DNA of 64,000 bases from Sedimentisphaerales bacterium (lineage in GTDB: Bacteria; Planctomycetota; Phycisphaerae; Sedimentisphaerales; Anaerobacaceae), in contig OY970194.1 in assembly GCA_963708075.1 (NCBI GenBank), forward strand, positions 4,224,001-4,288,000, written 5' to 3'. Shown piece after piece: positions 1 through 3,017 of the stretch (position 1 is its first letter; each line of letters begins with the position of its first letter). Below the pieces are notes generated by a model. The model made no database searches. It saw only the letters and a list, made by a program, of their open reading frames with translations, and was not told the origin of the DNA. The translations under genes and the position numbers were made by a program.

Positions 1-79
1 GGGCCTGCCCCTACATGTCGGCTCGGCAAAGCCGAGTGAAGTTGCTAACTCGCAACAACTGAAAAAGATTTCCAGATCT

Positions 80-1612
80 TCATGCGGCGGCTTTGTTAAG
101 TTGTTCTGTGGTGGCCTTTTGCGTTAGCGAGATGGTAGCGATGATTTTGGCTCCGTTCGCGGTCAGGCGATACTTGCGAGTCTTGGGCAGACGGCGGATG
201 ATCTTGTGCTCTCGCAATAGCCGCAGCAGATACGTCACCTTCGCCGAGACCTCCTTGGCAGGACGGTTTGGATAGAGACGGCCGGCAATATCCCGATTGC
301 GGAAATCCCCGACCAGTCCACAGGTCGCCACCGCCGCCAGCAGTTGCTGGTCCGCCTCGGACCAGGGTCGCAGCGCCCGGATCGATTTGCCCCTGCGGAT
401 GTGACGCCGGCAGATGGGCGAGACCACTTCTTCCACTCGCTCACTGGTGTCGAGCTTGGCCAGGGCTTCGAGGTAGCGGTCATTGACTTGTTGCGAGACT
501 TGACTGCGGGCGTATAAGTCCACGATGCCCTTGCTCATGGGCAGCATCCTCTTGGAACCCTGGGGATCGCGTTCGGACCGGCGGTAGACACGAAAGGCCC
601 GAGCGTTGTTGATCGTGCACTCCGTACGCAGGATCGAGCCGGCCTTGTCATAGACCTTGACGGAGTTGGCGTGTGCCTGGTGCTTGACCCGAATTCCTTC
701 GGGACGATCCCGGTAACTGCTGATCACCTCCTCCTGGCAGTTGGGATACAGACGCTTGCCGAGGAACCGCAGCACATCCTTGCTGCCAAAGGCGATCATG
801 GAGCCACGCACCAGTTGGGGATAGATACGGCCCAACGCCTTGGGATCATCAAAGGCGATATCCGTCGCCCATTCGGTCTCATGACTGGTCCAGTAGTAGT
901 GCAAAGGAAAACCGGCAAACATCGTCTCGTGGGCCGGATTGAGGAATCGTGCGATGCGGCCGAACTGCCGGCACCAATCGGTGCGGTGCAGTTGGTCCAT
1001 CAATGCCTGAGCCCGTGGAAAATCAGCCATCCAGGGAAAGCAGTTGTCACACCGCCGGTACGCCAGATGCTCTTGATCCATCCTCTTGGCCAGCCATTCG
1101 CGGCCGTTCATCCACATCTGAATGGCAAAGGGAAACCACGTTTGGATGCGGGCGCCCATGAACCCGAAGTAGGCATCGTACCAGTAATGGTACAGGTGCA
1201 TGCACTTGCCTTGAAACAGCTCCAAATCCAGCGTCTTGGCCTGGCGATTCTTATGAAGCTTGTAGGTCATGCATGGCTCAATCGTACGCAGAATGCAAAT
1301 CAGTCCCTCCCGGATGCCATCGCGGGCAGCGATGTCCAAAGCGACTTGTTCCTTATTGGTTCGGCTGGAGTGCAGGTACACATTGGGTCGGCCGGCCTGT
1401 TCGGCCTTGGCCACAGAGGCCTGGATCAGTTGCGCCGTCTTGTCCAGGGCGTACTGCTTGAAGTCCTTCATGAGAATGCTGCGATACGCCAGGTAGGAAC
1501 ACATCCCCGCCAGGTTGGCCACCAGGCGAAGGGTCCCACGAAAAACGATGCGGTCCCAGCCGCTCAAAACCCCTATAATGTGCTTCTTGTGCTTCTCCAT
1601 GAACGATTGCAT
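80..1612 (-). CDS. Putative Rep_trans/CRI-like transposase with C-terminal winged HTH (~510 aa)
   Basis: RBS AAGGAGG before ATG 1612. Motifs GVLSGWDRIVFRGTL, ETEWATDIAF and NSVKVYDK...LRTECTIN resemble rolling-circle Rep YxK/RxE motifs. C-terminal FRNRDIA...LLRLLREHKIIRRLPKTRKYRLT looks like a wHTH. Confidence 0.6.
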   Translation of the reverse strand: MQSFMEKHKKHIIGVLSGWDRIVFRGTLRLVANLAGMCSYLAYRSILMKDFKQYALDKTAQLIQASVAKAEQAGRPNVYLHSSRTNKEQVALDIAARDGIREGLICILRTIEPCMTYKLHKNRQAKTLDLELFQGKCMHLYHYWYDAYFGFMGARIQTWFPFAIQMWMNGREWLAKRMDQEHLAYRRCDNCFPWMADFPRAQALMDQLHRTDWCRQFGRIARFLNPAHETMFAGFPLHYYWTSHETEWATDIAFDDPKALGRIYPQLVRGSMIAFGSKDVLRFLGKRLYPNCQEEVISSYRDRPEGIRVKHQAHANSVKVYDKAGSILRTECTINNARAFRVYRRSERDPQGSKRMLPMSKGIVDLYARSQVSQQVNDRYLEALAKLDTSERVEEVVSPICRRHIRRGKSIRALRPWSEADQQLLAAVATCGLVGDFRNRDIAGRLYPNRPAKEVSAKVTYLLRLLREHKIIRRLPKTRKYRLTANGAKIIATISLTQKATTEQLNKAAA

Positions 1613-1697
1613 GGCATCCTCCTTGAAAAAACAGGTTGTCAGGTACAGCAACCAGCATAGCAGGGATGGATGCCTTTTTCATTCCAGAGGCTTGTGA

Positions 1698-1751
1698 TCA
1701 TCCTTTTCCTTTTTGCCCTCGATAGGCTTGGGGCAAAAAGGAAAAGGGTGA
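1698..1751. repeat. Long inverted repeat (17 bp perfect core) upstream of the Rep-like gene
   Basis: CCTTTTCCTTTTTGCCC (1702-1718) pairs with GGGCAAAAAGGAAAAGG (1731-1747) and extends through one G-T pair. Confidence 0.85.
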
Positions 1752-1979
1752 CCATCGTGGACAACAAGCGGGGCCAGCAGCGTCCACGGAGTGTGAGCAA
1801 GAAAAATGACAGGCGAGTCACGAGGGCGGATTCAACATCGCCGAGGATCGCGACTCTCGCTGGCGGCCCAGACTCGTGACCGAGACCACGCCTGGCATGT
1901 TCTTGCCACACGCAGTAGCTGCGGTCGAACGAGAACGCACATGCGATACGCCTTTGGTTGCGGCCGAAGGCCGCGCCAA

Positions 1980-2090
1980 GTTCATCGGCGTTCATCTGCG
2001 GTTGGAGAGCAGTTGACAGTTGTCTGTGGTCGGTTGTCAGTTGTGGCGTGCACGCCTTCGTGCTTTCTTCGTGGTCTTTGTGGTGGATCG
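1980..2090. repeat. Cluster of degenerate 7-10-mer tandem repeats
   Basis: GTTCATCGGCGTTCATCTGCGG, AGTTGACAGTTGTC...GTTGTCAGTTGTG and CTTCGTG/CTTCGTGG/CTTTGTGG units; partly overlaps the 3' end of the HNH-AP2 gene. Confidence 0.6.
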
Positions 2091-3017
2091 TTTTCTCTTT
2101 CGCTTGTCTGCTCTGCGTCTGGCGGCCTGGGCTCTTTTGTAGACCGCTTTTATCCGCTCTTTGGGCCACTCTTCGGGGAAGTTCAGGTAGGCGAATTCGC
2201 CGTTGAGCTCGACGTTCTTGCGGTCGCTGGCGCGGGCGGCTTCGATCTCGTCGGTGTAGCGGCCGACGTGGACGCTTTTGCCGTTGTACCAGGCGGTGGA
2301 CCGCCACAGGTTCCGATTCTTGTCCCGCGTGACGCCTTTGTATTTCGAAGTCTTGCCTCGCGGGCGGCGGTTGCAGTTGTTCTGGCCGTAAGTGCACAGG
2401 CGCATGTTGGCCTTGCGGTTGTCCAGGCTGGTGCCGTCGTGGTGATCGACGACCTTGCCCTTGGGGGCCTTCATGATCTGGCGATGCATGAGGATGCATT
2501 TGCCCTTGGAGTTGCGAGCGGCGTACCATTTGCCGCAGGTGTAGTGGGCGGTCCATCGATAGCGGCTGAGCTCCTCGTAGTCCTCGGCGTCCACGATGGC
2601 GAACATGCCCTTCGTCAAGGCGATGTAGCGAACCTTGTCGTTCGGGGGCTCCGGCTCGGGGTAGCGGACCGGCGGCTCGCGCCGGCCGTGGAAGTTGCGG
2701 CACGTGCCGCACGGGAGCACCTCTTTGATCTTGCCCGGCGCGGCGGCACTGTTGACGCAGAGCAGTTGGCCCGGCCAGCGGGTCGTCAGCCAGCCGGCGA
2801 AGACGCAATAGGCGCAGGTCCGCTTGTTCGCCGGCTCCTGGCGCTGCTCGTTGTCTGCGGGAGGCCGCCCGCGTGCCCGGAATCGTTTCTCGTGCTCCGC
2901 GTCCTGCGGCCGATGACCGGCGGGCTCCACGGGAGCGTCCCCCGGCTCGATGCTGGTCGATGGAAGGCGCTGCGGAGCGCTCGTCCCACTTTCTGTCCTG
3001 TGCTCTGCATTGTCCAT
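2037..3017 (-). CDS. HNH endonuclease-AP2 domain protein with N-terminal Cys4 motif (copy A)
   Basis: VDHHDGTSLDNRKANMRLCTYGQNNCN (HNH_3-like); SKYKGV...W...VGRYTDEIEAARASD...GEFAYLNFP (AP2); CAYC...C...CRNF; RBS GGGAGG before ATG 3017. Confidence 0.88.
   Translation of the reverse strand: MDNAEHRTESGTSAPQRLPSTSIEPGDAPVEPAGHRPQDAEHEKRFRARGRPPADNEQRQEPANKRTCAYCVFAGWLTTRWPGQLLCVNSAAAPGKIKEVLPCGTCRNFHGRREPPVRYPEPEPPNDKVRYIALTKGMFAIVDAEDYEELSRYRWTAHYTCGKWYAARNSKGKCILMHRQIMKAPKGKVVDHHDGTSLDNRKANMRLCTYGQNNCNRRPRGKTSKYKGVTRDKNRNLWRSTAWYNGKSVHVGRYTDEIEAARASDRKNVELNGEFAYLNFPEEWPKERIKAVYKRAQAARRRADKRKRKRSTTKTTKKARRRARHN

Follow-up and report, generated by a model that had tools for sequence, protein, structure and literature searches.

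The beginning of a 64,000-nucleotide stretch of Sedimentisphaerales DNA (hereafter the window) carries a single ORF for a 510-aa protein set amid short repeats, which raises the questions of whether this gene belongs to a mobile element, where such an element would end, and what kind of enzyme would move it. A sequence-only reading of the locus had proposed a mobile unit starting at position 17, with similar hairpins at its two ends and a Rep_trans-like transposase. The comparisons set out below make the mobility of this insertion sequence (IS) close to certain and lead us to favor, with a probability of about 0.6, an IS91-like rolling-circle transposon run by a non-HUH tyrosine enzyme of the Rep_trans fold.

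Extent of the element and its flanks

A BLAST search of the 7.5-Mb genome recovered two further copies, at 3,519,585-3,521,524 and 5,208,771-5,210,711; the flanks of the three copies are unrelated, and their agreement covers exactly window positions 41-1979. This common span (41..1979, minus strand, 1,939 bp, ~99.9% identity), which reads TTGGCGCGGCC ... GTTAGCAAC, is the whole insertion sequence, and the three-copy comparison moves its downstream boundary from 17 to 41. The gene occupies 80..1612 (minus strand; ORF 1612..83, stop codon 82-80), and in it the second copy has one single-base insertion and the third has two, the copies otherwise being in agreement; the window copy is the sole one in the assembly with an intact reading frame. 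A contig of run X1, marked as a possible source of the window DNA, matches 41-1981 without difference and then enters the flank of the second copy, so that the frameshift of the latter may be an assembly error; the X1 contigs give zero cover of the window's right junction. No terminal inverted repeats (TIRs) were found in the element, and the earlier description of a mobile unit with neither TIRs nor a target-site duplication is upheld by both the multiple copies and the homologous loci. We conclude that this is a real, currently or recently active insertion sequence.

The two hairpins that had been taken as matching termini do exist, but only GCGGCC-TTC-GGCCGC (1974-1960) belongs to the element, whereas CTCGGC-TTT-GCCGAG (36-22) is flanking DNA, absent from the other copies and occurring once in the genome at ≤2 mismatches. 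Because of the three-copy span and this single occurrence, we delimit the element as 41-1979 with one conserved hairpin, at its upstream end; the flanks of the other copies and the uniqueness of the second hairpin both rule out the symmetric two-hairpin model, and the ends are asymmetric, as in IS91. Directly after position 41, both other copies have GCAGAT, while the right flank of the window copy (1..40, minus strand, outside the element) starts with a non-canonical TTCA, continues with the 36-22 hairpin and closes with a REP-like palindrome in the first 15 bases of the window, which recurs elsewhere in the genome. This atypical flank fixes the downstream boundary of the element; it opens with TT and a hairpin, loosely resembling the element's own upstream end.

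The left target flank (1980..2003, minus strand, likewise outside the element) is a tandem 10-mer, CCGCAGATGAAC-GCCGATGAAC, whose last base is the conserved target C, and the reported setting between a REP and a tandem repeat is accurate. These neighboring repeats are provisionally labeled REP/RAYT and GxxExxY-associated. A boundary that would place RCAG inside the element was considered and ruled out: the bases after the downstream end (RE) vary with the target repeat (GCAG, GCCG, ACGG, TTCA), whereas the tetranucleotide at the upstream end (LE) stays constant within an element type, and a contig of run X5 has the left flank followed directly by GCGGAT in place of the element. In 23 same-genus genomes, an orthologous site lacking the window copy was not found, the matches there being to paralogous neighbors and repeats. 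Beside the element, window 2037-3017 (minus strand) encodes an HNH_3 + AP2 protein with ~15 paralogous matches in this genome and many matches in all 23 same-genus genomes; the third element copy also sits just downstream of such a paralog.

The LE (1948..1979, minus strand) comprises a terminal TTGG, the hairpin and a conserved AACCAAA, and by analogy with the IS91 layout it would act as a ter. The RE (41..75, minus strand), a putative ori, contains an imperfect inverted repeat (75-59) and the terminal motif GTTAGCAAC (49-41), in which base 44 (minus strand, position -4) is a putative guide picked out by the end-target covariation described below. The intervening leader (1613..1947, minus strand) has optional structured blocks, a hairpin with 24-bp arms (1695-1754) and an SD motif, AAGGAGG (1624-1618), 8 nt before the ATG. 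In this subclade the leader has conserved, partly complementary blocks and the long hairpin, which are absent from shorter family members; since the end motif of many homologs lies merely ~90-110 nt from the ORF, the long leader appears dispensable in the family. An Rfam search of window 1-2300 returned sub-threshold hairpin matches only and assigned no family to the leader, nor was a sigma-70-like promoter found there.

Ends and target across homologs

The same anatomy was examined in 82 loci, viz., 78 of 80 from metagenomes (two incomplete matches left out) and four of five from genomes (one internally deleted locus left out). The RE motif TTAGYARY|RCAG (≤2 mismatches) is present in 59 of the 72 loci with ≥60 nt past the ORF, mostly 41-48 nt from the ORF end, against a shuffled mean of 2.6, and the LE motif GCCGSAACCAA in 54 of the 61 loci with ≥250 nt upstream (shuffled mean 1.4); both are kept in homologs down to ~41% protein identity. 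Across homologs the upstream end reads NNAGCGCGGC-loop-GCCGCAACCAAA. It is preceded by C in 57/63 cases, the other six being visibly mis-anchored by the pattern, and a further RCRGA unit is found in 27/63 left flanks as against 61/1,467 control windows. These motif counts and the conserved C before the LE indicate, at the level of sequence comparison, that the target is C^RCAG(A), often within 9-10-bp tandem repeats; the earlier suggestion that repeats might be targeted agrees with this preference for short tandem repeats. The element can be classed as an autonomous insertion sequence; its ends are asymmetric, it inserts at a fixed target (C^RCAG) and it encodes a single protein.

A consistent target duplication is absent from the 46 two-ended loci, in which only 2-nt matches, explained by repeats, were seen; longer matches in three of them were set aside, two being mis-anchored and one lying in a tandem-repeat flank. 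The imperfect inverted repeat, 10-45 nt inside the RE, exceeds shuffled sequences in 50/59 loci. Near insertions, the target repeat has an inverted arm in 4/41 cases versus 0/49 control windows, too weak a signal to use. Flanking DNA captured beyond the ter was seen nowhere, which counts against the rolling-circle reading. One locus, L004, looked end-truncated at first; its deletion is internal, and it was dropped as evidence of polarity. For a distant relative (25% identity), two orthologous empty sites, 85-87% identical, have one tetranucleotide where the filled site has two, and these two differ (CTAA and CTAG). This relative (24-25% identity) is a 1,814-bp unit, CTAA...GGAAT|CTAG, that occurs at three different plasmid sites; a search for the empty sites of two Burkholderia insertions found none.

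The two sides of the downstream junction covary. Position -4 of the RE is complementary to flank position +1 in 55 of 59 junctions (42 T/A, 13 C/G; the remainder are two T/T, one C/A and one T/G), in a search whose pattern did not enforce this complementarity, and 56 of the 59 have G/C as the neighboring pair. A quick maximum-likelihood tree was built from 57 proteins, leaving out two frameshifted loci; on it, each position changes nine times, and the independent pairs include six in the same direction, none in the opposite and one unchanged (p=0.03); three control end positions on the same tree gave no significant signal. A same-genus set, reduced from 26 rows to 20 by taking out four loci already counted, one repeat within the set and one spurious match (three fetched regions yielded no row), has 16 complementary junctions (11 C/G, 5 T/A) and four C/A (Fisher p=0.008, for kin that are not independent). 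A Burkholderia end has a G/C pair at -4/+1. The rule has exceptions in the window copy itself (C/T, with TTCA after the RE), the four C/A genus junctions and a TCAG-target clade; it is also broken by two distant ends of the CTAG type, for which the boundaries are provisional. The TCAG-target clade (L092, L096, L099, L104, L105, L107, L109) has ends of the form TAGTAG(A/C)|TCAG, which lie off the -4/+1 pairing and may use another register.

We infer that this covariation reflects protein-assisted pairing across a 3-nt loop. Against such pairing, a two-pair stem is not stable alone and the folding of one junction favored another hairpin. Base pairing likely determines part of the site at which the element lands. 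Because one base of the element follows the target base, DNA-guided targeting can be tested cheaply and directly.

The putative transposase and its predicted fold

An AlphaFold2 model computed with 115 sequences (pLDDT 92.8 in full, 96.4 for residues 1-390) predicts a TBP-like/Rep_trans-like domain (1-390) followed by a winged helix (392-510), in line with the C-terminal wHTH noted earlier; the latter region (~392-510) matches MarR/PadR-type domains in VIA at Z 8-9.7 and fills the full-length VIA searches. RepSTK1 (4cij) came first in both Foldseek searches of the PDB (E=1.8e-3 and 1.0e-3), with TBPs next, and no match there passed E≤1e-3, the TM values being 0.2-0.3. Twelve viral matches at E≤1e-3 include A0A345MNV4, which PMC13107129 describes as an inovirus Rep_trans protein. 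In VIA searches with the domain model, TBP scored Z 8.4, RepDE Z 6.9 (rmsd 5.0, 179 aligned) and RepSTK1 Z 6.7 (rmsd 4.9, 188 aligned); the TBP-like matches of the domain span 174-188 residues, with modest scores for a predicted model, and a Z below 8 can reflect a common arrangement. The ranges of the latter two matches start at 13/39 and 12/1, which would place D20 on the metal ligands D46 of RepDE and D9 of RepSTK1 if the first strand is ungapped. Hence the Rep_trans fold that had been proposed survives in part, with the TBP-like model, the top PDB match and the retained catalytic constellation in its favor, and a weak score and a blank whole-domain profile comparison against it.

The catalytic constellation is best seen against RepD, in which Carr et al. 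(PMC4797284) give D46, D142 and E214 as metal ligands, Y191 as the nucleophile, and R189, K193, R212, A144 and D146 as conserved residues. The element protein has SVKVYDK and LRTE, as first read, at residues 317-323 and 328-331, and the codons for the putative nucleophile Y321 and for K323, R329 and E331 (620..652, minus strand), for D20 (1555-1553, minus strand) and for E247 (874-872, minus strand) specify residues to which roles can tentatively be given from RepD and RepSTK1. Among the 115 homologs, D20 is conserved in 111 (four gaps), E247 in 115, A249 in 104, D251 in 114, K319 in 114, Y321 in 115, K323 in 108, R329 in 115 and E331 in 115, so the alignment retains the candidate acidic ligands, the strand tyrosine, YxK and RxE. 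The resulting E-x-A-x-D, K-x-Y-x-K and R-x-E motifs mirror D142/A144/D146, R189/Y191/K193 and R212/E214 of RepD as given in PMC4797284, and persist in relatives of 24-28% identity. D20, E247, Y321, K323, R329 and E331 all fall on predicted strands. The TBP-like β-sheet of the model, a strand-borne tyrosine and, in matching sequence order, a D/E/E triad of acidic residues with K/R partners are shared with the Rep_trans/MOB_T comparators, i.e., RepD/RepDE (4cwc), RepSTK1 (4cij) and the inovirus Reps. A domain of this kind fused to a MarR-like winged helix is also found in the archaeal Rep-Arvir family (PMC13107129).

The protein also departs from Rep_trans in several respects. No Pfam, NCBIfam, PHROGs or PADLOC model matches the window protein; Rep_trans (PF02486) and Phage_CRI gave no match at E≤1, and were absent among the 25 families listed of 28 in a search with 89 aligned members (E≤0.1). 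The domain, at ~390 residues, has large insertions. Of the motifs set out in PMC5714925 (I, RxD; II, T/SxY/ExG; and the glutamate of YxKxxE), the first reads Q/E-x-E (position 245 is Q/E and 247 is E), the second is missing, with no TxYxG, and the glutamate is lost, with no E after K323; motifs I-III are in sum partly kept. A whole-domain HHalign comparison with 116 Rep_trans proteins gave a probability of 1%, equal to the reversed control, and a trimmed one, chosen afterwards, gave 8.9% (E=0.004), aligning YDK and RxE and not the E247 strand. A PDB sequence search with the alignment gave weak winged-helix matches only, and the ESM Atlas hypothetical-protein clusters only. The genetic context differs too: the gene belongs to an independent, multi-copy insertion sequence whose ends and target are fixed, and not to a plasmid, phage or ICE origin.

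Other enzyme classes fit less well. No HxH pair is conserved in >10% of the 115 sequences, profile searches gave no HUH-family match, and, unlike DDE insertion sequences, the element has no TIRs or duplication and its domain model is TBP-like rather than RNase H; nor are its homologs single-copy or syntenic. The protein could instead be a TBP-like DNA-binding scaffold in a mobile element that uses another chemistry, such as hydrolysis by the acidic triad or catalysis through Y141 or Y143, of which Y143 is also invariant and Y141 99% conserved in the homolog alignment. In favor of this, TBP ranks above Rep_trans in VIA and the whole-domain profile comparison is negative. Against it, the Rep_trans active site has counterparts in at least six residues, which keep its order and lie on β-strands; RepSTK1 leads two Foldseek searches, TBP lacks such a conserved set, and the duplication or TIRs of DDE chemistry are missing. 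We regard this explanation as improbable. We accordingly prefer a protein with a predicted TBP-like/Rep_trans-like fold, for which the structural link is weak in score, that would work like a Rep_trans enzyme while not being a PF02486 member, and that likely represents a new transposase class.

Mode of movement, family and derivatives

The element likely moves as a single DNA strand. In the account of IS91 in PMC13181058, a ter with one palindrome lies upstream of the gene and an ori with an adjacent target tetranucleotide downstream, there is no duplication, and a functional bottom-strand circle is formed. The present element shares with IS91, IS801 and IS1294 the lack of TIRs and of a duplication, the palindromic end upstream and the tetranucleotide target beside the downstream end, as well as a terminal tetranucleotide that often resembles the target (here CTGY on the bottom strand, with the ter tetranucleotide often being CTRN). 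It differs in that TnpA is an HUH (Y2) enzyme, whereas the element protein has no conserved HxH and is modeled as a different fold, and in that the target C^RCAG covaries with an element base, which the IS91 account in PMC13181058 does not describe.

In the rolling-circle scheme that we propose, a metal-dependent tyrosine nickase of the predicted Rep_trans fold would use its winged helix to bind the short inverted repeat in the downstream end, the putative ori. In pT181, the bind sequence lies downstream of the nick. Y321 would then cut the bottom strand where target and ori meet, 5'-CTGY^RYTRCTAAC (the candidate site for this element being CTGC^GTTGCTAAC), and hold the 5' end of the element, while replication from the freed 3'-OH would displace the nicked strand. 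At the upstream end, the hairpin (ter) might trigger a second cut after a tetranucleotide that in many cases resembles the target, yielding a single-stranded circle, which would insert at CTGY^G with the last base of the target pairing with the fourth base of the element across the 3-nt loop. The RE inverted repeat would be comparable to the separate bind repeat of pC221 (PMC4797284). The window copy lacks GCAG beside its downstream end despite its intact frame; IS91-like transposition would then not allow it to mobilize itself, but its enzyme could serve the remaining copies and the derivatives.

The same tyrosine enzyme might instead drive an IS200/IS605-type peel-and-paste movement, with excision of the element from DNA in single-stranded form, perhaps from the top strand, resealing of the donor and no nick-primed replication. 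The 5'-phosphotyrosine chemistry permits either route; the RE inverted repeat is above chance in 50/59 loci; and target choice by pairing, which the present covariation resembles, is a hallmark of IS608 (PMC5934647), with which our element shares an apparent recognition of the target by element-target pairing, no duplication and an expected single-strand circle. In IS608, however, the target tetranucleotide flanks the left end, each end has a recognized palindrome with a guide at its foot, and TnpA is a small HUH Y1 enzyme (PMC5934647), whereas here a 510-aa non-HUH protein is encoded, it is the downstream end that the conserved target bases flank, the strong conserved hairpin is only upstream, as in IS91, and the pairing base is 4 nt inside the downstream end with 1-2 pairs evident. 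One covarying pair only speaks for IS200/IS605-style targeting, with a differing geometry and with exceptions. Since the layout matches IS91 and the RE inverted repeat is a plausible winged-helix site, the asymmetric, IS91-like ends would favor rolling-circle movement, and we regard peel-and-paste as possible but distinctly less probable.

Of 8,000 candidates scored against the 510-aa protein, 3,308 are relatives, and 5,689 clusters (50% identity) match it at E≤0.001; existing annotations call the family members hypothetical proteins or ArsR-type regulators. The nearest named records are from Planctomycetota, and more distant ones are found on plasmids of Burkholderiaceae, Rhodococcus and Mycobacteriaceae. 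A far-fetched option is that the unit consists of little more than a Rep and a double-strand origin, as a minimal rolling-circle replicon whose integration is a by-product of nicking and closing by Rep, or that it is a domesticated, RAYT-like repeat-spreading nuclease: its fold belongs to replication initiators, and it stands among REP-like and tandem repeats with many short derivatives. Against this stand the precise conserved ends, near-identical copies at unrelated sites, a patchy presence (19/301 genomes of the class, by protein), the absence of family matches among 50,697 phage records and, with the two patterns used, in viral contigs, and its occurrence on plasmids as an insert within large replicons.

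In reviews of these enzymes (PMC5714925), the transposases that act by rolling circle or on single strands are all HUH enzymes, and Rep_trans proteins appear solely as plasmid, phage and ICE initiators. Our search of the full-text literature found no description of a Rep_trans-fold transposase; ISfinder, subscription journals and supplements lay outside its scope, and an unclassified entry may exist. We hold it somewhat better than an even bet that a large, phylum-spanning IS class uses a Rep_trans/TBP-fold tyrosine nickase, of a catalytic superfamily not described among transposases, together with IS91-like ends and a guide base that retargets it by Watson-Crick pairing, and that its short derivatives are a common class of intergenic hairpin repeats. 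If so, a second, unrelated rolling-circle enzyme family has also been recruited for transposition. Being large and without a library model, the protein family would be missed by family-based annotation; the element is also a possible compact single-strand insertion tool.

This genome contains at least four short LE+RE derivatives of ~195-200 bp, which are non-autonomous (G000:C1:5900285-5900480, 6218208-6218402, 4915386 on the minus strand, and 2714079-2714274), and ~15 derivatives with the upstream end only. The ~200-bp forms have a long internal hairpin built from CGCAGAG units in tandem; the C^GCAGA sites within this hairpin may be landing pads for further insertions, and several are cut off by REP-like palindromes. 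A truncated remnant of a second family member, ~51% identical, retains the upstream end and the start of the ORF (G000:C1:5137583-5137312, minus strand). Stacked elements also occur in assembled contigs, with an RE joined directly to another LE in L084 and an RE, an 8-20-bp target repeat and then an LE in L112 and run X4; these may be tandem insertions, and the junction of one element can serve as the next target.
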